Source: Sedimentisphaerales bacterium (GTDB lineage Bacteria; Planctomycetota; Phycisphaerae; Sedimentisphaerales; Anaerobacaceae). From it: a DNA stretch of 64,000 nt. The position numbers and the translations under genes were made by a program. Shown one piece after another: positions 4,861 to 51,358 of the stretch; within the stretch, counting starts at the first letter, position 1; each line of letters starts with the position of its first letter. The stretch covers positions 1 through 64,000 of the forward strand of contig JBEKZW010000005.1 in the NCBI GenBank assembly GCA_049509475.1, written 5' to 3'. The notes under the pieces are model-generated. The model had not been told where the DNA came from, searched no databases, and was given only the letters and a program-made list of their open reading frames with translations.

Positions 4861-5041
4861 GTTATTGTCCTGAGTATATCATAATATCGTATTTAGTAAC
4901 TTCTGACGAACACAGAGGATACCAAAATCAGGACGGGTTTGTCAAAATATTCAATTGACTTTTGGGTGTTGTTGTGAGAAAATTGCCGCCTCGTGTTTTA
5001 ACGGAAATGTTCCGAATTTATACTCCACGAAAGGATGTTTT

Positions 5042-6343
5042 ATGAGAGTAACTATGAAATTAGTCGTGATGCTGGTTTTTGTATCGGCTGGATTGGTTTT
5101 TTGGGGTTGCCAGAAATCCAACGCACCGGCCACAGGCGTGAAGACTGAAGCCAAAGAAGCAAAGCCGGCGGCCAAAGCGGAGGTCAAGGAAGCCAAAGCG
5201 GAGGTCAAGGAAGCCAAAGCGGAGGTCAAGGAAGCCAAAGCAGAGGTCAAGGAAGCGAAAGCAGAGGTTAAGGAAACGAAGACAGAGACCAAGGCGGAGG
5301 TTCCGGAGACCAAGCCGGCAGCGCCGGAGGCGAAAGTTACGGTTGCGGAGCCGAACAAGGCTGCCGCGGAGGGTAACGACATAGCGGTGACAGTCAATGG
5401 AGTTGTTATTAAGGACGCCGATGTTGACGCGAAGGTAGATGCTTTTATGCAGAGAGCGGCGGCACAGATTCCGCCGAATATGGTTGAGCAGTATAAAACG
5501 CAAGTTCGGGGTCAGGCGCTCGAAAGTATGATTATGGAACAGCTTCTTGCTGAGGAGGTAAAGAAAAAGGGCATTGAGATAACGGATAAAGACGTCGACG
5601 ACAAGCTGAATGAAGTAGTAGCTGCCCAGCCGGGGATGACAATGGAGTCGTTCAAGGAGATGCTGGCCGCGCAGGGGCAGTCGTTCGACGTGGTAAGGGG
5701 ACAGATTAAAAAGACGCTTGGTTATGAGAAGCTTCTCGGCACAGTCGAAGTTAACGATGCCGAGGCAAAAGCATTTTATGATGAAAACAAAGACGATTTC
5801 AATATGCCCGAGCAGGTCAAGGCCAGTCATATACTGATAAAGGTTGCTCCGACAGCAACGCCCGAGGAGAAAACCGCGGCAAAGGCGAAGATAGACGGTT
5901 TGCTCAAACAGGCAAAGGCGGGCGGGGACTTCGCTGCGCTGGCGAAGGAAAATTCAGATGACCCGGGGTCTAAAATCAAAGGCGGCGACCTCGGATTTTT
6001 CGATAGAAGCACGATGGTCAAAGAGTTTGCTGATGCCGCGTTCGCAACGAAGGTCGGACAGTTAAGCAAGGTAGTCGAGACGCAATACGGCTACCACATA
6101 ATAAAGGTCACCGACCACAAAGATGGCGGCATGACGTCATTCGACAAGGCAAAGGCGGATATCGTCAAATCGCTTCAGGACAAAAAGAAAAACGAGGCGT
6201 TCAAGCAGCTAATCGAGAAGGTAAAGGCAGGGGCGAAGATTGAGTATCCGCCGGGCAAGGAGCCGAAGCCGCGGATGCCGAGGATGATGCCGAGACCGAA
6301 TACGCCGGCACCCCCGCCACAATCTGCACCAGCGACGAATTAA
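5042..6343 (+). CDS. PpiC-type peptidyl-prolyl cis-trans isomerase lipoprotein (PrsA/SurA-like) with N-terminal tandem repeats
   Basis: Signal peptide with lipobox (LVFWGC), an AKAEVKE tandem repeat block, and a C-terminal parvulin domain (ASHILIKV...GGDLGFFDRSTMVKEF...GYHIIKV). Confidence 0.8.
   Translation: MRVTMKLVVMLVFVSAGLVFWGCQKSNAPATGVKTEAKEAKPAAKAEVKEAKAEVKEAKAEVKEAKAEVKEAKAEVKETKTETKAEVPETKPAAPEAKVTVAEPNKAAAEGNDIAVTVNGVVIKDADVDAKVDAFMQRAAAQIPPNMVEQYKTQVRGQALESMIMEQLLAEEVKKKGIEITDKDVDDKLNEVVAAQPGMTMESFKEMLAAQGQSFDVVRGQIKKTLGYEKLLGTVEVNDAEAKAFYDENKDDFNMPEQVKASHILIKVAPTATPEEKTAAKAKIDGLLKQAKAGGDFAALAKENSDDPGSKIKGGDLGFFDRSTMVKEFADAAFATKVGQLSKVVETQYGYHIIKVTDHKDGGMTSFDKAKADIVKSLQDKKKNEAFKQLIEKVKAGAKIEYPPGKEPKPRMPRMMPRPNTPAPPPQSAPATN
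5171..5296 (+). repeat. Coding tandem repeat, 21 bp x about 6 (gccaaagcggaggtcaaggaa)
   Basis: Near-perfect 21-bp direct repeats encode (AKAEVKE)n inside the PPIase gene. Confidence 0.85.
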
Positions 6344-10100: not shown

Positions 10101-10363
10101 ACCCTTCTAAGATTTTCGATTGCCGATTGTCGATTTCAAAAACCTTGCAGCCAGTGTTCTACAAGCGCAGCCAAGTCATCCAGATTGACTAAGCCGTCGC
10201 CGGTGAGGTCTTCCCCGCCGCAGTAAAGAGTTGAGTCAGCCTGCATCCATTTGTTGCCCATAGCAGCGAAATCAATGAAATTGACATCTTTATCATTATC
10301 AGAATCGCCGACGACAAACTGCCAGGCAAGCTCAGGATGAACAGACCCCGCCCTACGAAATGT

Positions 10364-11608
10364 TTACTTGAAATCCGGATTGGGGACGGGGTTCTGGCCG
10401 TATTGCTCGAGCATTTCGGGCTGGCAGACGGACTGGCGTTTGATGATGTATGAGTCACCCTCGATTCTGCCGCCGGTTTGCAGGATTGCTTTTTCGGCGC
10501 GCTTGAGTGAGCTGTTGATAAGGTCGGCATAAGTGTAATTAGTATGGCTGTATTTGTTATTGGGATATTTTTCGATTGATTCTTTCCACTGCTTGGGGAG
10601 TTTGTCGTAGCCGAGCATTGTCCCCACGATTGCGCCGGCGTTGGCGGGGTTGCAGTCGGAATCCTGGCCGCAGCGTATGGCATATTCGATGGTTTTTAAG
10701 ATGTCCCCGTCGCCGTAAAGAAGTCCGATAGTGATGAACGCGCCGTTGAATGACGCGGCGATTTTGAAGTTATCGCCTTCACTATTACTATTGCAATCGA
10801 CGGCGGTGTCGAGATATTTGTCGTTGATGAATTTCCAGCAGGCCTTGAAGTCGTCGGGGTTTTTATCGTGGAAGTCGATAACGTCTTTGATTGTCTGGTA
10901 GTATTGCGATTTTCGCGGCATTGATTCGATTGCCCGGCTGACGATTTTGTGAATGTCGTTACATTCGAAGGCGAGCGCAACCATCGTGCTGACGTAGCGG
11001 CCTCCGTAGACGCCGTCGCCGTAATTCATAACGTGGCCCACGCGGTCACTGAGCTGCGCCGCGGTCATCGGCATCGCCGGGCACATCAGGCCAATCCAGT
11101 CGCACTCAATCTGCCAGTCGATATCGTTGGCGCATTTGTTGAATCTTTTGCCCGGCCCCGCCCACATTCCGGTTTGCGGCGGTTTCATGCCTTTGCGGAG
11201 ATTTTCTCTGCCTGCTTTATTTGCGTGCCAGAGTTCGTAGCCGCTTTTTTTGAACGCCGCGCCATAATCATCCATAGTCGCCGCGAAGATTCCTTCGGGG
11301 TCGGCGAGTTTGGCGTCCATTGCGGAGATGAAGGTTATCTGCACATAGATATCATCCTGCGAGAAGCCGTCGTTGAGGTCTTGATACAGGTTGACCGCGC
11401 CTGTGAACATTTTGCCTTTGGCGTTGAATTCCGTCGGTCCCCCAATGCAGACGCCCGCTGTTTTGCCAAGCCAGCCGCCTTTTATTTTATCTTCGAGAGC
11501 TGATTTGCTGATTTTGAAATCACCTTTGCAGCGTTGCTGTTGCTGCCGGCAGCTTGCGCAAAAAACGACAACGAGTATCAAACCGGCAATCGCCAATTTT
11601 GTCCGCAT
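10364..11608 (-). CDS. ADP-ribosylglycohydrolase family lipoprotein
   Basis: Signal peptide plus Cys (FCASC). ADP-ribosylglycohydrolase motifs GGWLGKTAGVCIGGPTEF and CGQDSDCNPANAGAIVGTMLG. Confidence 0.8.
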   Translation of the reverse strand: MRTKLAIAGLILVVVFCASCRQQQQRCKGDFKISKSALEDKIKGGWLGKTAGVCIGGPTEFNAKGKMFTGAVNLYQDLNDGFSQDDIYVQITFISAMDAKLADPEGIFAATMDDYGAAFKKSGYELWHANKAGRENLRKGMKPPQTGMWAGPGKRFNKCANDIDWQIECDWIGLMCPAMPMTAAQLSDRVGHVMNYGDGVYGGRYVSTMVALAFECNDIHKIVSRAIESMPRKSQYYQTIKDVIDFHDKNPDDFKACWKFINDKYLDTAVDCNSNSEGDNFKIAASFNGAFITIGLLYGDGDILKTIEYAIRCGQDSDCNPANAGAIVGTMLGYDKLPKQWKESIEKYPNNKYSHTNYTYADLINSSLKRAEKAILQTGGRIEGDSYIIKRQSVCQPEMLEQYGQNPVPNPDFK

Positions 11609-11792: not shown

Positions 11793-12530
11793 TTACCAGC
11801 CCCAATCCGGAGGCGGGACGTTGTGTCTTTCACGGTGAGGCATATTCCATTCCTGTTGCCCCATATTGTCCGTGCCTGGTCCCGGATTCCAGTTTTGCTG
11901 GAAACGATGCCCCCAGCCGCGCATCGGCCCGGGGCCACCTTGCTGAGGCGCCCAGTTATTCATGCCCATATAGCCCTGCTGACAGGGCATCTGTTCGCAT
12001 CCGCCTGCTGTTGGTCCAATACCGCCGCGATGGAATCCGCAGCAGCCGTTCATTGCTTCAAACTGCTGCCAGCGAGGGCCAGCCATTGGGTATCCCCAAT
12101 TACCAAACTGGCCTGGCATTGCCCAGCCCTGATTCCAGCCTGGGCCTGCCATTTGCGGGCCTTGACCCCAACCGGGACCTGCCATCTGTTGGCTCCAACC
12201 CCAGCCGAATCCCATCTGCCTCATCATTCGGCGATGTGCCCACCTGTGCCACCTGTTGAGTTTTACGAATTCCCGCATTTTTTCTCTGCGTTCCTGCATC
12301 TTGTTGATGATTTGACCCATTTTTTCTCTATCGTTGGCCTTATAGGCCTCGACCAGCTCATCGAGGAGCCGCTCGTGCCGGCCAAATCCCTGTGCGAATT
12401 GTTCGCCGACTTTTGCCTTTGAGGAGGCTTTTTCAGCGGATGCCTTTTCTTTCGCTTTTTCCGCGGCGAATACCGCTATAGTTACCAGTAAAACGGCCGC
12501 GATTATCCCTGTAACGATTTTTCTTGTCAT
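11793..12530 (-). CDS. Secreted low-complexity protein rich in Gly/Trp/Gln/Met/Pro
   Basis: Signal/anchor helix, a charged helical segment, then repeated MAGPGW / GWG / QQ units. No known domain. Confidence 0.55.
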   Translation of the reverse strand: MTRKIVTGIIAAVLLVTIAVFAAEKAKEKASAEKASSKAKVGEQFAQGFGRHERLLDELVEAYKANDREKMGQIINKMQERREKMREFVKLNRWHRWAHRRMMRQMGFGWGWSQQMAGPGWGQGPQMAGPGWNQGWAMPGQFGNWGYPMAGPRWQQFEAMNGCCGFHRGGIGPTAGGCEQMPCQQGYMGMNNWAPQQGGPGPMRGWGHRFQQNWNPGPGTDNMGQQEWNMPHRERHNVPPPDWGW

Positions 12531-12551: not shown

Positions 12552-12740
12552 TTGTTATTACCCAGTTCACGAATACAGACGTTTGACGAGTTAGTTTTAT
12601 TGCGATTTGATTTCGCTGCTATGGGCAGCAAATGGATGCAGGCCGACTCTAATCTTTACTGCGGCGGCTCAGACCTCACCGGTGACGGCTGGGTTGATTT
12701 GGAAGACCTCGCGGCTTTCGTCAACAATTGGCTGCAATAA
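12552..12740 (+). pseudogene. Orphan dockerin-like C-terminal fragment (likely gene remnant or mini-ORF)
   Basis: Encodes ...CGGSDLTGDGWVDLEDLAAFVNNWLQ, the calcium-binding-loop-like motif seen at C-termini of PVC-type secreted proteins. No upstream catalytic domain is present. Confidence 0.3.
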
Positions 12741-22343: not shown

Positions 22344-23189
22344 TTATCGTTGCTTAACTATTGCGTCGGGGCCGCGGATGTAATTGGGCGTGAGGGTAAG
22401 GGGGTCGGCGAATTGGCGTTGCAGGGCGAGTTGCCAGCCGAGGCGGTGAATATTGGCGGCGGAGGGGTTCCAGAACTTTTCATCAAGCACGCGAATGTTC
22501 GGGTTGGTGAATTTGTCTTTGTAAAAAACCAGGCCTTCGCCAATCAGGGCGGTCAGTTTATCGGAGAACCGGGCGAGGAATTCTTCGGGAGTCATTAAGC
22601 AATCGGGAAGAATTTTTATTAGCGGATAGCGGGTAGTGGACAGCGGACAGTCGGTTTTTAGTTTTGAGTGTTTAGTTCTGAGTTGATTGAGATTGCTTCG
22701 CTTCGCTCGCAATGACAAATCAGATTGCGACACAGATTCATATACAGCGATGAAGAACTGGCCTCGTTTGGCGTCGAGGATTGTTGCCAAACGTTCGTTT
22801 GGCAACAACAGCGAACAGCGTTCAGCGTTCGGCGTACAGGCAAGGTTAATCACATTGGCGGCGATGCAATCGAGGGTATCAACTGCGACGATTTTTGCGT
22901 CGTTTGCCAGGGCCATAGTTTTTGCGAGGGTCACGGCGATTCGCAGGCCTGTGAAGCTGCCGGGGCCTGCGGAGATATAAATGTGCTCGATTTGGTCCGG
23001 CTTTTTGTTGAACCTACCCAATAAATGAGTAATAGCGGGGAAAATCTCTGCACTGTGGCGCATTGGACCTGAGAAGCTGGTTTCAGACAGGAGTTTATCG
23101 CCATGGGCGAGCGCGACCGAACCCAGCCGGCCGCTGGTCTCGATGGCCAATATGAGAGGATTATCGAAATTGGCTGTATCTGTCGTCAC
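22344..23189 (-). CDS. tsaB: tRNA threonylcarbamoyladenosine biosynthesis protein TsaB (YeaZ) carrying an in-frame repeat insertion
   Basis: N-terminal TsaB core (ILAIETSGRLGSVAL...GPGSFTGLRI) and C-terminal PNYIRGPDA tail. The middle 45 aa are encoded by dispersed-repeat sequence. Confidence 0.75.
   Translation of the reverse strand: MTTDTANFDNPLILAIETSGRLGSVALAHGDKLLSETSFSGPMRHSAEIFPAITHLLGRFNKKPDQIEHIYISAGPGSFTGLRIAVTLAKTMALANDAKIVAVDTLDCIAANVINLACTPNAERCSLLLPNERLATILDAKRGQFFIAVYESVSQSDLSLRAKRSNLNQLRTKHSKLKTDCPLSTTRYPLIKILPDCLMTPEEFLARFSDKLTALIGEGLVFYKDKFTNPNIRVLDEKFWNPSAANIHRLGWQLALQRQFADPLTLTPNYIRGPDAIVKQR
22615..22737. repeat. Composite short repeat inserted inside tsaB (AGCGGGTAGYGGACAG...TTTTGAGTTTAG unit plus GTCATTGCGAGCGAAGCGAAGCAATC hairpin)
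   Basis: The first unit recurs at 32835-32885. The second belongs to the TTGTCATT hairpin family (636-668, 33533-33562, 51167-51198). Confidence 0.55.
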
Positions 23190-23386: not shown

Positions 23387-24031
23387 TTATTTCTTGCTGT
23401 TCGGGTCCGCTGGTTTGTTTGCGTCTTTATCCTTTTCGCAGCCTTTAACCTTCTCTGCGCCTTCGGTCTTTTCGGAAACTGCGCACATCTTGCTTTTGTT
23501 CGGCTCTGCCGGCTTATTTGCGTCAGCGGGCTTGTTTGCATCGGCTAAGGCGCCGAAATCGCTCGCTCTGATGATGGTGGCTTTGTTCGGCTCGGCGGGC
23601 TTATTCATATCGGCGGGTTCGTTCGGGTCTTTCTTGTGGTGTTTGCCTTTTTTGCCCTTTTCAGCCGGCTTATTTGCGTCTGCGTATGTGCCGAAATCGC
23701 TCGCGCTGATGATGGTGGCCTTGTTCGGCTCGGCGGGCTTATTCGTATCGGCGGGTTCGTTCGGGTCTTTCTTGTGATGTTTGCCTTTTTTGCCTTCGGA
23801 GGCGGCGAGCTTGCTTTTGTTCGGCTCCGCCGGCTTATTTGCGTCAGCGGGCTTGTTTGCATCAGCTAAGGCGCCGAAATCACTTGCGCTGATGAGGGCG
23901 GCCTTGTTCGGCTCAGCCGGTTTGTTCGCATCGCCGGGTTTATTGGCGTCAACTGTTGCCGCGAGGCAGTTAGTCGCAACGAATGCGACTGCAACGATTG
24001 CCAGCACTGTTAGTAGTGTTCTTGTATTCAT
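23387..24031 (-). CDS. Secreted repetitive protein with ANKPAEPNK / ISASDFGALADANKPA repeats
   Basis: Signal peptide followed by about 5 degenerate 40-aa repeats rich in Lys/Pro/Ala/Asn and KKGKHHKKDPNEPAD blocks. Confidence 0.65.
   Translation of the reverse strand: MNTRTLLTVLAIVAVAFVATNCLAATVDANKPGDANKPAEPNKAALISASDFGALADANKPADANKPAEPNKSKLAASEGKKGKHHKKDPNEPADTNKPAEPNKATIISASDFGTYADANKPAEKGKKGKHHKKDPNEPADMNKPAEPNKATIIRASDFGALADANKPADANKPAEPNKSKMCAVSEKTEGAEKVKGCEKDKDANKPADPNSKK
23400..23990. repeat. Coding tandem repeats (about 120 bp units) within the repeat-protein gene
   Basis: Near-identical DNA blocks, e.g. ttgttcggctcggcgggcttattc.tatcggcgggttcgttcgggtctttcttgtg.tgtttgcc, recur. Confidence 0.7.
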
Positions 24032-26494: not shown

Positions 26495-26630
26495 GGGGCG
26501 AAAAAGAGACCTGCGCCAATCAGTAAAGCGGAGACGGGGCAATAGAACGTATCAGCGGTTGATTTTACTCAGTAACTCTTTACTGGCCTGGACGCGGAGC
26601 TTGGCGTTCTCGTAGCGTCTTTTTTCATCC
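26495..26630. repeat. Dispersed 3'-end repeat, copy 1 (downstream of the radical SAM gene)
   Basis: About 130 bp shared with 28518-28630 and 30490-30575 (aacgtatcagcggctgattttactcagcaaatctttyctggcctggacgcggagtttggcgttctcgtagcgtcttttttcatc). Confidence 0.75.
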
Positions 26631-28166
26631 GTTGTCAACGGCTGTGCCGCATTTGTTCATTGAGCTGTCGGCGATTTCTTTCATTTGAGGGTAAATATTT
26701 TTTAACATCTTACGGAAATGGAATCCATATATAGACAGGCGAACAGCCATCACCAGACGGCGCGGGCTCCTGATTGCCCAGAACAGCAGCATCCAATAAT
26801 ACATCTTGCCCTTATCTATTATGCCGATTTTCCAGATTGACCTTAGAAACGCCCTGATGTCGCTGTATCGCAGTTTTAGTTTTGCCTTATTACTGAAATT
26901 GTAATTCTTAAGAAACGTTTTGATGCGTTTGCAATAGTATTTCTGCGAGTAAATGGTATTCAGCACTTTGAGATACCCGTGCATAAGTTCGTGGATATCC
27001 ATCCTCGGAATAAAATTCATTGTGCAGTCCATGTTGTCTCCGGATGCCGGCATTGTTAATCTGTTTTCACTCATCAGCTTCTTATGGAGTTTTGTTCCTG
27101 GAGGGGCGTTGAGCAGTCCGACCATCGCGGTGACCACGCCACTGTCCTGAATCAGGCTTATCAATTTATCAAACACACTTGGCTTATCATTGTCAAAACC
27201 GAGAATAAAGCCGGCCTGCACCTGTATGCCAAACCGCTGGATTTTTTTAACCGCCGCGACAATGTCACGTCCGGTGTTTTGCATTTTGTTGCATTCAGCC
27301 AGACTCGATTCATTCGGGGATTCGATGCCGATAAATACACTGCTGAAACCGGCGCCGGCCATCATTGTCATAAGCTCCTCGTCGTCCACCAGGTCGATAG
27401 AGGTCTGTGTATTGAAGGAGAACGGGCGTTTTCTTTTGTTCATCCAGTTTGTGATTGCCGGCAGCAGTTCGTTTTTAAGCTGCTGGCGTTTTCCTATAAA
27501 ATTATCGTCCACAAAGAAAACGTCGCCTCGCCACTTATGAACATAAAGGGCTTCAAGCTCATCGATTATCTGGCTGGTTGTCTTTGTTCTCACCTTATGG
27601 CCAAGCAGGGCCGTGATATCGCAAAAATCACAATTAAACGGACATCCGCGGGAAAACTGAATGCACATCACGGCATATTTTTTCATGTTAATTAAATCCC
27701 ACTGCGGGACCGGCGTATTTTTCAGGTCAGGTTTTTCGTGAGTAGTATAAAAAGGTTCGGGGCATCCTTTTTCGAGGTCACTTAAAAAAGCAGGCAGCGT
27801 GATTTCCGCTTCTTTTAATACGAGGTGGTCAATATTCAAATATCCTCCGGGAAACACGGTAAACAGCGGACCTCCGGCGACGATTCTGGCGTTCAGTTTT
27901 TTACAGCGTTCGATAATCTGGTCAACGGATTTTTTCTGAATCACCATTCCTGTTATGAATACATAGTCTGCCCATGTGATATCCCGGTCGCGCAGAGCGG
28001 TTACGTTCATATCAATTAGTTTTTTCTCAAAAGATTCCGGCAGCATTGATGCAACAGTAAGCAGCCCGAGGGGCGGAAGAAGCGCCTTTTTTGAAACGAA
28101 TTTCAGGGCGCTTTTCAAACTCCAGAAAGTATTTGGGACTTCGGGATTTACAAGCAGGATTTTCAT
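26625..28166 (-). CDS. B12-binding domain radical SAM protein (class B, DUF4070-type C-terminus)
   Basis: N-terminal B12-binding-like region, CxxxCxxC cluster (GCPFNCDFCD), and a C-terminal DUF4070-like tail. Confidence 0.85.
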   Translation of the reverse strand: MKILLVNPEVPNTFWSLKSALKFVSKKALLPPLGLLTVASMLPESFEKKLIDMNVTALRDRDITWADYVFITGMVIQKKSVDQIIERCKKLNARIVAGGPLFTVFPGGYLNIDHLVLKEAEITLPAFLSDLEKGCPEPFYTTHEKPDLKNTPVPQWDLINMKKYAVMCIQFSRGCPFNCDFCDITALLGHKVRTKTTSQIIDELEALYVHKWRGDVFFVDDNFIGKRQQLKNELLPAITNWMNKRKRPFSFNTQTSIDLVDDEELMTMMAGAGFSSVFIGIESPNESSLAECNKMQNTGRDIVAAVKKIQRFGIQVQAGFILGFDNDKPSVFDKLISLIQDSGVVTAMVGLLNAPPGTKLHKKLMSENRLTMPASGDNMDCTMNFIPRMDIHELMHGYLKVLNTIYSQKYYCKRIKTFLKNYNFSNKAKLKLRYSDIRAFLRSIWKIGIIDKGKMYYWMLLFWAIRSPRRLVMAVRLSIYGFHFRKMLKNIYPQMKEIADSSMNKCGTAVDNG

Positions 28167-28517: not shown

Positions 28518-28630
28518 CGGGCGAAAAAGAAATCAGCGCCCATTAAACGTATCAGCGGCTGATTTTACTCAACAAATCTTTCCTGGTTTGGATACGCAGT
28601 TTGGCGTTCTCGTAACGTCGTTTTTCATCC
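28518..28630. repeat. Dispersed 3'-end repeat, copy 2 (immediately after the pectinesterase stop codon)
   Basis: On the minus strand it continues in frame after the TAG stop, encoding DEKRRYENAKLRIQTRKDLLSKISR-stop. Confidence 0.75.
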
Positions 28631-30435
28631 TACTTCACTGTCAATGAAGCCGGCTGGCTCGTTACGCGGCCCAATCCATTCATCACGGTGACGGTATAGG
28701 TCGCCGCATCCCTGGCGCGAACATTTTCTATTTTTAACATCGCATCCGTTGCGCCGCTGATAGCGTTACCGTTCTTGAACCATTGACAGGTCGCTGTCGG
28801 AATAGCTTCGGCCTTGACACTGAAGGTTGCTGTTTGCCCAGCCGTTGTAATTACTGCCGCCGGCTGCGACAATATTAGCGGAGCCATCGAAGGAGACCAT
28901 CCGCCAAGCACATAAGAAGGATTGCTGTAGTTGGCGATTATCTCGGCGTCTTTGTCTTTGGTCAGTTGTCTGGAGGCGGGATGCCGCCGGCTGACATCAA
29001 CCGGTTTGCCGTCGCTGATGTTGGAACTATTGTATTCCCAATAATGAATATTCGATGTGTCGGGGCCTACCGGACCCCACCCCGCGGAGCTGATGCCCGC
29101 AAGGGCGCAATTGAGCAATACTGCTTCGCAGTATGGGTAATCCTTGCCTTTGTTCGTGGGCGCACGGGCGATTTCAGTCTCGCGTGCCCCTTCAGTTTGA
29201 AACCTGCAATTGAGAAAGACATTACCGTGGTTAGCGGATGTGTTGCGTATCCACATATAGGCGCCGCCATGTGAAATGAGCTGGCAACGGTTGAGGAACG
29301 CCGGCCCGCGGCCGAGGATTATATCTCCGTCGCCTGTAATCCGGCAATCGGTCAGGTAAACCGAGCCGTTCACCTGTAAGGCATCTCCTGAGCCTTCAAT
29401 ATTAACATTGCTGACGATATTTTGCCCGCCCGCCAGAAGCAGCCCTTCGGCCTGACCTTTCGCTGTGGTTTTGACCGTGAAGTTGACGAGGTGAATCCCT
29501 TTTGAATTATCTCCCATGAACGCAGCGCGACGGGAAGGAAATGTACCCGGCATCTCGTTGGTGGCTACGTTCGACGGATGCGGATTAAAGACTTCATTAT
29601 TGGCGTAACACACAATTGTCTTGTCCCGGTCTTCGCCGAGGAATGTGATGTTCGTCTTGTTGCGGAAATAAACGATTTCCTCATATGTGCCGTTTTTGAT
29701 GAATATAGTTACGCGATTGGGATTGTTATCGGGGAGAAAATCGACCGCGCCCTGCACGGTGCTGAAATCGCCAGAGCCGTCGCCAGAGACCACGAGCCGC
29801 TGGGGATTCCCTGGAAGCGGATTTTTTTTGGTTTTGAAAGTCCATCCGGTTTTGCCTGTGATTCCGGAGAAGCTGCCGTCGCTGAGGCTCAGTACTCCGG
29901 GGTCGATCTGCACGTAATATGTCTTGTTATACTCCAGAAGATTATTGTGAGGGTATATTGTCGCCACGGTGTCATGGATGATGACAGGGTAAAAGTGAAA
30001 CGCATCGGTGAAGCCTCCGATGATCGTAAGCTGATAGTTATCCGGCGTGGCAAGCGCAGTGCCGGATGGAGTCCCCGGTTTAGTGTTGGCATTGGTGAAA
30101 CGGCCTGAGACGTATTCGTAAGGAGTCGTTGTGTAAGACACCTGGGTCCTGTCGCTGGTTGTCGGGCCTGCTGGGATGTTCATGTCCAGGACGTCAACCA
30201 GACGGTCATCTGCTGCGTCATAAATACGAATCTGTCCCGAATTGCCTAATGTCGGCTTGCCGGGGAAAATGAGCACCAGATGTGTGTCCGGATTTACTTC
30301 CTTAGCTTTGTCCGCGGGCCAACACGAAATAGTTTGGCGGAGTTCTTCTTTTTGTGCAAAAAGTAAATTGCATAAAGTAAGAAGAGCGGCGACCTTAATG
30401 GCGATATACGTGTTTCGAGTCATGGCTGTCTCCAT
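28630..30435 (-). CDS. Pectinesterase (CE8) with signal peptide and C-terminal Ig-like domain
   Basis: Pectinesterase signature FIKNGTYEE plus the beta-helix catalytic region (GDGDIILG). C-terminal I-set-like Ig domain. Confidence 0.85.
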   Translation of the reverse strand: METAMTRNTYIAIKVAALLTLCNLLFAQKEELRQTISCWPADKAKEVNPDTHLVLIFPGKPTLGNSGQIRIYDAADDRLVDVLDMNIPAGPTTSDRTQVSYTTTPYEYVSGRFTNANTKPGTPSGTALATPDNYQLTIIGGFTDAFHFYPVIIHDTVATIYPHNNLLEYNKTYYVQIDPGVLSLSDGSFSGITGKTGWTFKTKKNPLPGNPQRLVVSGDGSGDFSTVQGAVDFLPDNNPNRVTIFIKNGTYEEIVYFRNKTNITFLGEDRDKTIVCYANNEVFNPHPSNVATNEMPGTFPSRRAAFMGDNSKGIHLVNFTVKTTAKGQAEGLLLAGGQNIVSNVNIEGSGDALQVNGSVYLTDCRITGDGDIILGRGPAFLNRCQLISHGGAYMWIRNTSANHGNVFLNCRFQTEGARETEIARAPTNKGKDYPYCEAVLLNCALAGISSAGWGPVGPDTSNIHYWEYNSSNISDGKPVDVSRRHPASRQLTKDKDAEIIANYSNPSYVLGGWSPSMAPLILSQPAAVITTAGQTATFSVKAEAIPTATCQWFKNGNAISGATDAMLKIENVRARDAATYTVTVMNGLGRVTSQPASLTVK

Positions 30436-30489: not shown

Positions 30490-30575
30490 GAACATATCAG
30501 CGGCTGATTTTGCTCAGCAAATCTTTTCTGGCCTGGACACGGAGTTTGGCGTTTTCGTAGCGTCTTTTTTCATCA
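30490..30575. repeat. Dispersed 3'-end repeat, copy 3 (forms the C-terminal coding end of the thioesterase gene)
   Basis: Encodes the genuine C-terminal tail PETPDEKRRYENAKLRVQARKDLLSKISR of the YciA-like thioesterase. Confidence 0.75.
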
Positions 30576-31000
30576 GGTGTTTCCGGCAATATCGGCGGTA
30601 CAGGACAGGGGTGTTTATCTTTATCAAGTGCGACAAAAGTCAGATGAGCGGTCGTAGCGATAACCTGTTTGGCATCGTAAGGGTCTTCGCGAATGACGCG
30701 AACGCCGACTTCCATTGAAGTATGGCCTACATAATTAACAGAGGCCTTCAGCACAACGTGGTCGCCGACGCGAACCGGCTCTCTGAACGATAGCGAATCG
30801 ATGCTTGCCGTTACGACCTCTTTGCCGCAATGCCTCTGGGCGGCCATTGAGGCGACCATGTCAATCCAGGCCACAATCGCCCCGCCCAAAGCGGTCCCGT
30901 AAGGGTTCGCCTGATTAGGCATCAGCAGATACCTGCTCTCAACGGCGCTGTCTGATGGTTTTTTGCCTGCCATATTTTCTGCCATTTCTAAAAACTGCAA
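30497..31000 (-). CDS. Acyl-CoA thioester hydrolase, YciA/BFIT-like hotdog family
   Basis: 167 aa. The hotdog core (YLLMPNQANPYGTALGGAIVAWIDMVA) and a basic EEKRRFEE-like C-terminal tail are typical of this family. Confidence 0.8.
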   Translation of the reverse strand: MQFLEMAENMAGKKPSDSAVESRYLLMPNQANPYGTALGGAIVAWIDMVASMAAQRHCGKEVVTASIDSLSFREPVRVGDHVVLKASVNYVGHTSMEVGVRVIREDPYDAKQVIATTAHLTFVALDKDKHPCPVPPILPETPDEKRRYENAKLRVQARKDLLSKISR

Positions 31001-32834: not shown

Positions 32835-32927
32835 GTGTAGACAGCGGACAGCGTGTAGCGGGTAGCGGACAGTTTTGAGTTTAGCCATAGAGATTTTTAG
32901 CTACAGAAGTCACAGAGGACGCAGAGA
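32835..32927. repeat. Dispersed repeat copy (GACAGCGGACAG...AGCGGGTAGCGGACAGTTTTGAGTTTAG + TAGCCATAGAGATTTTTAGCTACAGA)
   Basis: Matches 22615-22670 (inside tsaB) and 31015-31050. Confidence 0.6.
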
Positions 32928-32977
32928 AATAATAAGAAGGAAAAAGCAAAAAGTGGAAAATAAGGAAGGGGAATACT

Positions 32978-33532: not shown

Positions 33533-33562
33533 GGATTCCCGCGTTCGCGGGAATGACAAATG
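33533..33562. repeat. Hairpin repeat GGATTCCCGCGTTCGCGGGAATGACAAATG (TTGTCATT family, reverse orientation)
   Basis: Near-perfect palindrome GATTCCCGCG / CGCGGGAATC, related to 638-666. Confidence 0.55.
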
Positions 33563-34308: not shown

Positions 34309-35049
34309 ATGGAAACATGTACCGTAACTAAAAATCTGGGAATTGTCCCCGGTACGAGGGCGGATTATGAATCGCTTTCGCATTATCATTACCGCGAAGG
34401 CCATTCGGGGCCTTGTGTGGCGATTTTCGCACTGAAGGGCAAATTCAGAACAGCGACGAAGCTCGAAACCGTTGGCGTGATTGTTTATTCGATGCCGACA
34501 GCGGGGGCGCAGATGCGAAATGTCGCGACGGGCGGAGTTTTCGCGGGGCTGGAGAGGGGCACGCAGTTGAAACTCATCAACAGGAATATCCGCACAATCA
34601 GCAGGGTGATTATCGAGCCGAGGTTTCGCTCGCTGGGGCTTGCGGTTCGATTAGTCAGAGAAACGATGTTTTTGCTCAATGTCCCCTTCGTCGAGGCGCT
34701 GGCGGTGATGGGCAGGGCGAACCCGTTTTTTGAAAAGGCGGGTATGACCCGATACGATGCACCGATTTCGGCTTCGTGCGTTCGGCTGATTGAGGCGTTC
34801 AGTGCGGTCGGCGTTGATGAGCAGGATTTGATTGACCCGGTAGTTGTGCAGCAAAAGCTCGACAAAGTCTTGTCCGACAAATCAAGTTTTATCGAAAGCG
34901 AAATGACACGATTTCTTCAAAGTTATGGCCAAAGGCGGCTGATGCAGCCCGGCATCGTTCGCACAAGATTCGTCCTCAGCAAACTCACCGACAGGCCCGT
35001 GTATTATCTTTGGAAAAACCCAAACATAGAATTGATTATTGATGATTGA
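34309..35049 (+). CDS. Hypothetical protein, possible GNAT-like acyltransferase fold
   Basis: 246 aa. IIEPRFRSLGLAVRLV resembles GNAT motif A (R/QxxGxG/A). Assignment is weak. Confidence 0.35.
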   Translation: METCTVTKNLGIVPGTRADYESLSHYHYREGHSGPCVAIFALKGKFRTATKLETVGVIVYSMPTAGAQMRNVATGGVFAGLERGTQLKLINRNIRTISRVIIEPRFRSLGLAVRLVRETMFLLNVPFVEALAVMGRANPFFEKAGMTRYDAPISASCVRLIEAFSAVGVDEQDLIDPVVVQQKLDKVLSDKSSFIESEMTRFLQSYGQRRLMQPGIVRTRFVLSKLTDRPVYYLWKNPNIELIIDD

Positions 35050-35711
35050 TTATTGGAAATTTTATGAAGCACATAACACAATCAATCGAATTGAATAAAC
35101 TTGTGGCACATCCGGATAATCCCAACGTGATGAGCGAGGCGACGTTTCGCAAGCTGGTTCGCAATATCGAGCGGACGGGGCTTTATGAGCCGATTGTCGT
35201 CAGGCCGCACCCCCAAAAACAGGACTGCTTCGAGATTATTAATGGCCATCATCGGGTAAAGGCCCTCGAATGGCTGGGGCGTAACGAGGCGGATTGCGTT
35301 GTCTGGGACGTGGACGATGAGCAGACGGCGATTTTGCTGACGACGCTAAATCGTTTGGCGGGTTCGGATACGCTCGCGAAAAAGATTGAACTGCTGAAAA
35401 AACTTACGCAGCGGATGGGGACAGCCCAGCTTGCCAAATTACTGCCTCAGACGGCCAAGCAGATTGAGCGGCTTACTAACCTGAAACTGAATAGTGTCCC
35501 TGTAAAGTTAAACGCCGAGAGTTTCGCTGTTCCGCTTGTGTTTTTTGTGACAAAGCAGCAGCAGGGGGTTATCGAGAATGCAATTGAGGCAGCAGCGTTC
35601 AGCGAACAGCGTACAGCGGACAGGACACAAACGACAAAGGCACAGCGTCGCGCCAGGGCGATTGCGGAAATAGCAGGCCAGTTTATGGAGGGTGAAAGAT
35701 GCCGGATGTAA
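35046..35711 (+). CDS. ParB-like nuclease domain protein
   Basis: ParB/Srx N-terminal domain motifs (LVAHPDNPN...EPIVVRP...IINGHHRVKA). Its ATGA start overlaps the upstream stop. Confidence 0.75.
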   Translation: MIIGNFMKHITQSIELNKLVAHPDNPNVMSEATFRKLVRNIERTGLYEPIVVRPHPQKQDCFEIINGHHRVKALEWLGRNEADCVVWDVDDEQTAILLTTLNRLAGSDTLAKKIELLKKLTQRMGTAQLAKLLPQTAKQIERLTNLKLNSVPVKLNAESFAVPLVFFVTKQQQGVIENAIEAAAFSEQRTADRTQTTKAQRRARAIAEIAGQFMEGERCRM

Positions 35712-51157: not shown

Positions 51158-51166
51158 ACGTCGATT

Positions 51167-51198
51167 GTCATTGCGAGGAGCAAAGCGACGAAGCAATC
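51167..51198. repeat. Hairpin repeat GTCATTGCGAGGAGCAAAGCGACGAAGCAATC
   Basis: Same family as 22691-22720 and 638-666. A partial copy lies at 51843-51857. Confidence 0.5.
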
Positions 51199-51358
51199 TC
51201 ATGCTCCGAACGTCATGCTTTTCAACAGTTCCGCTGTCCCTATTTATTCCGACAGCAACGAAAAAGGCCCGGGAAAAATCCTCCGAGCCAATCTAAATGC
51301 CACAAAAGCACTGAACCATTATACCGAGCCAAGTTAAGACCTGAAATCCACTAAAATA

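Follow-up and report, generated by a model that had tools for sequence, protein, structure and literature searches.

The gene tsaB, within the 64,000-nucleotide (nt) stretch of Sedimentisphaerales bacterium DNA analysed here (contig JBEKZW010000005.1, positions 1 to 64,000; hereafter the window), carries a 126-nt segment in place of the 30-nt loop found at the same position, site C, in its closest insert-free relatives. This mosaic segment combines a solo half of a palindromic element with two heptanucleotide tandem arrays. We consider it likely that this insert is a genuine expansion of a surface loop of TsaB, derived from the short repeats that otherwise occupy intergenic DNA of the genome and translated with the rest of the protein.

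Host gene and anatomy of the inserts

The tsaB coding sequence (CDS) occupies 22344–23189 on the minus strand, encodes 281 amino acids according to the list of open reading frames (ORFs), and hosts two insertions, at sites C and B. Its product matches TIGR03725, the equivalog profile of TsaB, the dimerisation subunit of the tRNA-modifying t6A complex, over positions 1–212 of 212 (136.3 bits versus a cutoff of 69.3, E 1.3e-39), and is also matched by the Pfam TsaD family. The GPGSFTGLRI motif (G75–I84) is invariant in the protein alignment of TsaB homologs, and the conserved C-terminal half, including LPDCLMT, GEGLVFYKDKF, WNPSA and PNYIRGPD, follows downstream of the site-C segment. The ratio of nonsynonymous to synonymous divergence (omega) of the tsaB core is 0.115–0.153 versus four relatives, which indicates purifying selection. 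The window ORF is a bona fide full-length tsaB, and a pseudogene reading was dropped on the grounds of the core omega of 0.12–0.15. The same value agrees with a preliminary description of this DNA, which had placed the extra segment between conserved parts of TsaB.

A homolog search in a large protein collection gave 3387 TsaB homologs, the best 120 of which were used (55–84% identical, 232–321 residues); the relatives among them belong to Sedimentisphaerales and Phycisphaerae metagenome-assembled genomes (MAGs) from peat, fen and sediment. The extent of the insert was defined by DNA alignment with two insert-free relatives, P0006/L038 and P0002/L042, which have 82–84% protein identity to the window and read GAA-AAGACACAAGACGCAATCTGGAAGAAGGTT-CTTCC at site C. 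These 30 nt encode KTQDAIWKKV. Between the same GAA and CTTCC, the window has the 126 nt at 22611–22736 (minus strand; CDS positions 454–579 in the alignment with P0006), which encode SVSQSDLSLRAKRSNLNQLRTKHSKLKTDCPLSTTRYPLIKI. The insert adds a net 96 nt without shifting the frame, equal to 32 residues, with 41 versus 9 residues between 'YE' and 'LPDC', and peptides predicted from the sequence across the junctions include FFIAVYESVSQSDLSLR and YPLIKILPDCLMTPEEFLAR. The preliminary description had reported an in-frame insertion of dispersed-repeat DNA at 22615–22737, made of two repeat units and adding about 45 residues. The ortholog DNA alignment and the dispersed copies of the modules confirm the insertion and, within a few nucleotides, its position, while the net gain is smaller and three modules are found instead of two.

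On the coding strand the segment begins with an 18-nt leader, TCTGTGTCGCAATCTGAT. The first module, which we term H1, is a solo 31-nt copy, TTGTCATTGCGAGCGAAGCGAAGCAATCTCA, at 22688–22718 (minus strand) and encodes LSLRAKRSNL. It is followed at 22654–22683 (minus strand) by an array of about four degenerate heptanucleotide units, CTCAAAA on the coding and TTTTGAG on the plus strand, which encodes LRTKHSKLKT and is scored by Tandem Repeats Finder (TRF) at period 7 with 3.4 copies. After CCGAC comes the second array, at 22620–22647 (minus strand), whose coding strand repeats T(G/A)NCCGC four times (the plus strand reads AGCGGNN; TRF period 7 and 4.0 copies); it encodes CPLSTTRYPL. Tandem heptamers make up two thirds of the segment length. 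Both arrays are nearly perfect in the relative P0003, where CTCAAAA reaches 4.6 copies with 100% matches. Taken as a whole, the 126-nt segment forms no palindrome or fold (RNA z +0.19), and the H1 copy in tsaB folds no better than shuffled sequences (z +0.4 and +0.6), on which grounds a hairpin at this copy was dropped. When the 47-residue insert peptide was compared with an index of 5.8 billion proteins, no candidate among those listed shared three 5-residue words with it.

The order leader, H1, array, array recurs at matching codons in P0003/L041, P0004/L164 and P0007/L043, which are independent assemblies from other samples. Over all 126 nt the insert is 88% identical to that of P0003 and 86.5% to that of P0004; H1 is identical in the window, P0003 and P0007, and P0004 differs by one base, in the leader. 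These observations bear on the proposal that the insert is an assembly artefact, as the preliminary description also considered, or a chimeric join at repeated DNA. The exact protein occurs in one MAG contig only (P0001), repeats can mislead assemblers, and in another relative, L034, tsaB ends after a hairpin module. In the window, however, both junctions are in frame and tsaB resumes beyond them, three assemblies have the same architecture at 86–88% identity, and two further assemblies have an identical site B. We therefore regard an artefact as scarcely credible.

Site B, at 22791–22850 (minus strand, residues 114–131, NLACTPNAERCSLLLPNE), is a second repeat-derived in-frame segment and holds a CTGAACG-type heptamer array (22816–22839, TRF). 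In minimal relatives this stretch is seven residues long, SPQDNSQ, and the profile alignment shows a 12-column gap for E. coli and enterobacterial TsaB. In other relatives site B is made up of the CTCAAAA unit type (LKTQNSKLKT). The 60 nt of the window insert are identical at all 60 positions to those of P0002 and P0006, whose proportion of synonymous differences (pS) in the core is 0.35–0.44. Additionally, a perfect 13+2+13 palindrome, TTGTTGCCAAACG-TT-CGTTTGGCAACAA (22781–22808), spans the end of the site-B insert and the native RLAT codons. L002 and L038 have it as well, and in L042 it is reduced to 8 bp; its sequence suggests an inverted duplication or a template switch.

An AlphaFold model built from 52 homologs (predicted template modelling score 0.80) has the two-lobed ASKHA fold of YeaZ, and its closest solved structure is E. 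coli YeaZ/TsaB, 1okj (target-normalised template modelling score 0.85). The site-C insert lies between the model strands 145–152 (QFFIAVYE) and 190–199, that is, in the β2–β3 connection of the C-terminal lobe. The predicted local distance difference test score (pLDDT) is mostly above 90 in the core, 48–70 over the site-C insert, below 50 at residues 175–185 and also below 50 at residues 117–125 of site B. In a profile alignment to solved TsaB structures, the ground-state turn KTQDA aligns with the turn QRDENG of E. coli TsaB, and the turn at site C is short in E. coli, Salmonella and Vibrio. The model and the profile alignment both assign the insert to a surface loop, in accordance with the structural question raised in the preliminary description.

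TsaB binds TsaD via an N-terminal helical bundle (PMC4330362) and, through its C-terminal helix together with a C-lobe arginine, contacts the tRNA anticodon loop (PMC13276492). The counterpart of that arginine here is most likely the invariant R142. In the model topology R142 sits in the β1–β2 turn, and the insert is located at the other end of strand β2. An adaptive gain, with the insert serving as a basic arm by which TsaBDE holds the tRNA or a partner, would be compatible with the tRNA contacts of TsaB, with the net positive charge of LSLRAKRSNLNQLRTKHSKLKTD (7 Lys/Arg, 1 His and 1 Asp) and with a low-confidence helix predicted at residues 155–171. This explanation is nevertheless very improbable, since the insert is patchily present, modules of other composition occupy site C elsewhere (VSFPRKRESIDDYPLYATRYPL), the omega of the insert is 0.54 versus 0.115 for the core, the peptide is set by a 7-nt DNA periodicity, and the loop, as far as the model indicates, lies at the opposite end of β2 from the conserved Arg142 turn.

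Allele series and module divergence among relatives

Site C is hypervariable among the relatives, which form an allele series there. Counted from YE to LPDC, 44 of the 120 homologs have 9 residues (KTQDAIWKK) and 35 have 16, which is the same turn plus 7 (e.g. KTQDPRPKTPDPIWKK); altogether 89 of 120 have a length of 2 modulo 7 (9, 16, 23, 30, 37 or 44 residues). At the DNA level the ground state is itself a heptamer array of two units, AAGACAC AAGACGC AATCTGG, and the 16-residue forms consist of five heptamer units, with a unit that varies by lineage (AAGACCC, GGGACGA, GTCACGA or ATGAACA). Three heptamers equal 21 nt or seven codons, the sole step that preserves the frame, and the length of site C is therefore quantised by seven residues. 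Across 220 kb around the tsaB genes of relatives, 20 of 29 period-7 arrays fall in tsaB, as counted from their coordinates.

Besides these arrays, site-C alleles carry recognisable modules. H1 appears as LSLRA(K/E/Q)RSNL, while in other alleles VSFPRKRES or LSFLRKQES represents a hairpin of the type of neisserial dRS3, a 20-bp repeat ATTCCC-N8-GGGAAT that bounds intergenic mosaic elements (NIME) (PMC1797815). In L001 this hairpin reads GTCATTCCTGCGAAAGCAGGAATC, with a compensated stem, and in L001, L017 and L034 it lies at the same position as H1 in the window. Alleles with H1 and alleles with the dRS3-type hairpin have a common leader, linker and downstream array, so the composite is homologous and its core alone differs. 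Nested pieces are visible at the protein level, namely LRQAQGRQ within an AAGACNC array and, in P0016, TCPELVEG within the hairpin module. Sequences that neighbour each other in a tree of the core alone agree at site B and differ at site C (e.g. P0033 versus P0003; P0032 versus P0013/P0018), and one site-C composite is found beside differing site-B states.

Other loops of TsaB vary as well in the relatives: site A, after FSGP, by 33–44 additional residues, site F by 11, and site D by 8 (TCGERSRT) in 14 sequences. The site-A inserts occur in P0015/L001, P0051, P0074, P0104 and P0118 and fall in the β3–α1 loop. In E. coli YeaZ this loop shifts its conformation upon TsaD binding and adjoins the interfacial ADP site (PMC4330362); that an insert is harmless is less obvious at site A than at site C in the window.

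The allele series also bears on whether the long segment is a native, ancestral TsaB loop that some relatives have lost. Related composites are indeed found in several branches of the family. However, the 9-residue turn in 44 homologs, the same turn plus seven in 35, and the short turn of E. coli, Salmonella and Vibrio are not what a same-length conserved region in close relatives, the outcome named in the preliminary description as fatal to an insertion, would look like. Moreover, the segment is built of intergenic repeat families, and its synonymous divergence is 4–5 times below that of the gene. A native origin is accordingly highly improbable.

That divergence was measured between the window and P0003. 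The core has a synonymous divergence (dS) of 0.92, a nonsynonymous divergence (dN) of 0.106 and an omega of 0.115, versus a dS of 0.20, a dN of 0.108 and an omega of 0.54 for the insert, in which the differences are gathered in the heptamer arrays. The low dS of the insert relative to the core suggests that the insert was recently exchanged, converted or inserted. Nested events of the same kind were observed in other genomes. A 24-nt site-D module, ACCTGTGGTGAGCGAAGTCGAACC, encoding TCGERSRT, is identical and at the same codon in four genomes (L003 3574–3597, L011 1260–1283, L013 3490–3513 and L016 3505–3528), where the 180 flanking nt are 70–81% identical. This module is found also in a viral contig (L325 3779–3800), where ATCATAA direct repeats flank it within a heptamer array of the ATCNNAA type. 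Furthermore, P0007 differs from P0003, to which it is about 96% identical, by a 33-nt hairpin-forming insertion, CGCCTCGGCGTAGCCGGTAGGCGAAGCCGGGCT (fold z −1.8), in the TAYCCGC array (L043 3538–3570), absent from L041, and by one 9-nt unit at site B. The mismatches of the pair L043/L041 cluster in the last 150 nt, a clustering that suggests recombination. Altogether, the data fit a history of one or a few founding insertions, after which modules turned over, arrays slipped, further elements nested and lineages recombined. Gradual decay of an old neutral loop by vertical descent does not fit them.

The inserted DNA may thus be recently exchanged, converted or inserted, or it may be constrained at the nucleotide level; the data fit both and cannot separate them. 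The second alternative would take the modules as nucleotide-level sites, for example recombinase sites as proposed for dRS3/NIME, with the peptide as a by-product. Several findings favour it: the modules are far better conserved than the codons around them (60 of 60 nt at site B, 24 of 24 in four genomes at site D, and the dS contrast above); H1 and dRS3-type cores swap at one position between the same flanks; a stem shows a compensatory change, CCCGCG/CGCGGG versus CCTGC/GCAGG; and the edge of site B is a 13-bp perfect palindrome. In addition, dRS3 repeats are documented integration sites of filamentous prophages and proposed recombinase sites (PMC1797815). On the other hand, the closest relatives lack the site-C modules, which are therefore dispensable, the window copy of H1 folds no better than shuffles, and recent horizontal exchange accounts for the low divergence too. 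No recombinase was found in the 10 of about 63 window ORFs scanned, and no search was aimed at an Nf-type phage or a Piv/IS110-like recombinase. We judge that nucleotide-level sites are an unlikely explanation, if the most serious competitor of a translated loop expansion.

Repeat families in the window and beyond the clade

The modules of the insert recur apart from one another in the window. The H1 pattern, whose 31-nt form is TTGTCATTGCGAG...GAAGCAATCTCA, occurs exactly twice, at 22688–22718 and 51165–51201, versus 0 in 100 shuffles. The second copy is on the plus strand, intergenic and solo, with a core 6 nt longer. TRF detects 16 period-7 arrays in the window versus 1.2 expected from Markov-2 simulations, and 4 of the 16 lie clearly within long ORFs, three in tsaB and one in an ORF with a ParB_N domain. 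In the latter (ORF 35046–35711), an AGCG-type heptamer array (AAFSEQRTADRTQ, 35593–35623) is in frame near the C-terminus of the protein. The tsaB array at 22620–22650 falls into one repeat family (D14) with 32843–32872 (83%) and 35594–35623 (73%).

An intergenic mosaic at 32840–32935 consists of an AGCG-type array, a TTTTGAG unit (32873–32882) and a CACAGAG-type module. At 32840–32885 an array of the T(G/A)NCCGC family adjoins the TTTTGAG unit, likewise in tsaB; 32842–32873 matches the site-C array of P0004 at 87.5%, and 32886–32935 matches the site-B insert of P0004 tsaB at 84% over 51 nt (E 5e-9). Two dRS3-type hairpins were located in the window: H2, ATTCCCGCGTTCGCGGGAAT, at 33535–33554, intergenic and an exact ATTCCC-N8-GGGAAT, and a second copy at 644–663 with one mismatch to this pattern. 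The hairpin at 33533 has a DNA fold z of −3.35. Among the relatives listed in the preliminary description, the copy at 51167 and the stretch 32835–32885 stand, while the hairpins at 638 and 33533 have only the termini TTGTCATT...AATC in common with the tsaB H1. No second copy of the whole site-C composite exists in the window; its modules recur in varied orders and orientations. At the gathering level, no Rfam family matched the window, with nothing meaningful up to E 5 around tsaB, and none matched ten metagenome loci with H1 pairs.

Both the H1 and the dRS3-type families extend far beyond the clade. H1, taken as TTGTCATTGCGAG-N(4-20)-GAAGCAATCTCA with 25 fixed terminal bases, is found in at least 120 metagenome contigs, of which the 80 analysed have a GC content of 28–64%, and in 40 viral contigs. 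It is also present on plasmids of cyanobacteria and alpha- and gamma-proteobacteria, including Nostoc punctiforme, Calothrix and relatives, Novosphingobium, Methylobacterium and others, with at least 40 places in one record of Novosphingobium. The metagenome copies are imperfect palindromes of 30–45 nt and usually stand outside genes in inverted pairs: 59 of 85 have an inverted partner within 130 nt versus 4% of controls, with spacers of 2–58 nt. H1 has no Rfam family and nothing on it was found in the literature, where a full-text search for the modules gave unrelated primer matches only. The dRS3-type hairpin occurs at no fewer than 40 places per record in Neisseria gonorrhoeae and Photobacterium, and in at least 120 viral contigs, and it also has matches in Azospirillum, Legionella and Cupriavidus. 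Specifically in coding sequence, genes on unrelated metagenome contigs read through H1 in frame, namely those for a PheT beta subunit, an M50 (RseP-like) protease and an Eco57I-type methylase, and on the Sphingopyxis indica plasmid pMC4 the annotated ileS contains a dRS3-type pair in frame (RHPRESGDPE...SRFRGNDK). The in-frame module loci in other genes are at L071 1707–4031, L048 1019–2155, L075 2–1975 and L343 1404–1643.

The inverted pairs resemble the termini of a miniature inverted-repeat transposable element (MITE), the kind of element named in the preliminary description, or of bacterial interspersed mosaic elements (BIME). A classical MITE would have arrived by one transposase-mediated insertion with terminal inverted repeats and a target-site duplication. 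A size of about 100–126 nt fits this view, and two copies of GCAATCT, read from the sequence, enclose a 24-nt core in the window insert. The same heptamer, however, is also a unit of a heptamer array and lies off the ends of the 126-nt segment, which lacks terminal inverted repeats and shows no clear target-site duplication. The segment contains a single H1 half, with no inverted partner within or beside 22611–22736, has no global fold, is two thirds tandem heptamers and is made of modules that recur separately. A MITE is hence very unlikely. From the preliminary description as a whole, a tolerated in-frame repeat insertion remains, and the MITE and the artefact do not.

The window holds further repeats. 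Beside tsaB, the minus-strand gene at 23387–24031 encodes 214 amino acids with an N-terminal hydrophobic segment and tandem 46-residue DANKPAEPNK-rich repeats; their DNA has a 138-nt period at 91% identity, and Pfam gives no match. Inverted repeats of 131 nt, 81% complementary (10145–10275 and 12607–12737), enclose 2.3 kb with the minus-strand ORFs 10364–11608 and 11793–12530. A 98-nt sequence is present three times, about 2 kb apart and 79–86% identical (26545–26642, 28545–28642 and 30490–30587), at the ends of three consecutive minus-strand ORFs that are probably tandem paralogs. Finally, a 21-nt tandem repeat of about 6 copies (91–96%) at 5147–5294, in the 462-residue ORF 4955–6343, encodes AKAEVKE-type heptads.

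Proposed origin, known systems and implications

We propose the following course for the insert. A heptamer array at the loop could change its length in the gene only by three-unit steps (21 nt, seven residues), and such loop arrays would attract other small elements. In the window allele the loop would have been replaced by the leader, H1, the CTCAAAA array and the T(G/A)NCCGC array. The mosaic would then evolve as DNA, with arrays slipping and homogenising and the H1 core being swapped for the dRS3-type hairpin, while hairpin elements of 24–33 nt nest in it and whole modules pass between related lineages by recombination or conversion. The new DNA might be generated by slippage plus recombination or through insertion by some enzyme. 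Selection would act as a filter only, passing multiples of 3 nt, stop-free orientations, and loops that spare the fold and the surface facing TsaD and tRNA.

The orientation of the modules is in line with such a filter. TTTTGAG holds TGA, and AGCGGAT AGCGG holds TAG in one frame; since 21 nt of a heptamer array take it through each of the three frames, any run of at least three units in the TTTTGAG/AGCGG orientation hits a stop. CTCAAAA, TACCCGC and H1, as oriented in tsaB, are open in all three frames, which is the prediction of a translation filter. Translation of the insert is most likely. Intein, splicing and ribosomal bypass were dropped, since catalytic residues are absent and the frame and the stop-free orientation are kept in all intact homologs, as would be expected only of a segment that is translated.

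Several points weigh against a translated, tolerated loop expansion. We infer both the translation of the insert and its functional neutrality. The low synonymous divergence of the modules could equally mean nucleotide-level function instead of recency. Within the window, neither terminal inverted repeats, a clear target-site duplication nor an enzyme was found at site C, and the generating mechanism is a conjecture. The mapping of gains and losses uses a crude neighbour-joining tree of 225 columns. A 9-nt match, CGCAATCTG, aligns the ground state with the window at the price of a 100-nt insertion plus a 4-nt loss; such a path is unparsimonious, and the match may have arisen by chance. The insert would point away from the TsaD/tRNA surface according to the strand topology of the model together with the literature (PMC4330362, PMC13276492). 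In L034, the likeness to tsaB ends right after the dRS3-type hairpin at site C (2845–2872), which is either a chimeric assembly join or misassembly at the repeat, or a real disruption.

The insert can be compared with four known systems. Rickettsia palindromic elements (RPEs) are single palindromic units of about 100–150 bp with a conserved peptide, found in Rickettsia only (Ogata et al. 2000, as summarised in PMC10969869). Both systems involve short selfish repeats in frame in unrelated housekeeping genes, with fold-compatible peptides and families that are also intergenic. In contrast to RPEs, which we compare by description, the tsaB insert combines a 31-nt half-element with two heptamer arrays and has no overall palindrome, close relatives have rebuilt its site again and again, and its modules are cross-phylum. 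For cyanobacteria, Elhai et al. 2008, a study cited in PMC5861425, reportedly described heptanucleotide short tandemly repeated repeats (STRR) and small dispersed repeats (SDR), mainly intergenic, and the SDRs are said to reside in heptamer arrays. The window resembles this description in its many tandem heptamers of varied units and in the 24–33-nt elements embedded in arrays and nested mutually; H1 itself is present on plasmids of the cyanobacteria Nostoc punctiforme, Calothrix and relatives. The tsaB arrays and their nested elements differ in lying inside an essential gene, with 21-nt length steps. Over-representation of heptamers has been described (PMC4692102).

The dRS3/NIME system is similar in that dRS3-pattern hairpins lie at 33535–33554 and 644–663 and short repeat families make up mosaics in intergenic DNA of the window; it differs in that the tsaB copy of the window is of the H1 type (ATTGC-N12-GCAAT), not dRS3, and in that NIMEs are defined as intergenic. 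Like the repetitive extragenic palindromic (REP) sequences and BIMEs of enterobacteria and pseudomonads, H1 in metagenomes takes the form of short, imperfect palindromes that are mostly paired in inverse orientation across short spacers. Unlike REPs, which are species-specific and linked to REP-associated tyrosine transposases (RAYT), H1 keeps its 25 terminal bases over a GC range of 28–64%, and the window copies are solo. In-frame insertion of selfish repeats is known from RPEs, and the tsaB mosaic would, judging from sequence comparison, be a variant with an allele series, seven-residue quantisation and cross-phylum modules.

A wider and more tentative idea, which we think possible but doubtful, is that tsaB loops in Sedimentisphaerales are landing pads that register the continuing activity of very small cross-phylum elements, namely 24–33-nt hairpins aimed at heptamer arrays, H1 and dRS3-type palindromes, which would routinely remodel surface loops of essential proteins related to translation (TsaB, PheT, IleS and RseP). 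If so, these elements would move or convert faster than their host genes diverge and constitute a cross-phylum analogue of the RPEs. This idea overlaps with the view of the modules as nucleotide-level sites. In practical terms, such inserts inflate protein novelty, seed spurious 'hypothetical proteins' and can break metagenome assemblies. The modules are less diverged than the gene and occur in distant phyla, including the neisserial dRS3 type, which points to active exchange or insertion. Together, the allele series shows non-coding repeat DNA turning into protein, with a tight β-turn of two heptamers that grows in seven-residue steps and then accepts palindromic modules and nested mini-hairpins while an essential gene stays intact. 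In this clade tsaB can conveniently serve as a natural reporter of whatever machinery produces heptamer arrays and very small dispersed repeats.

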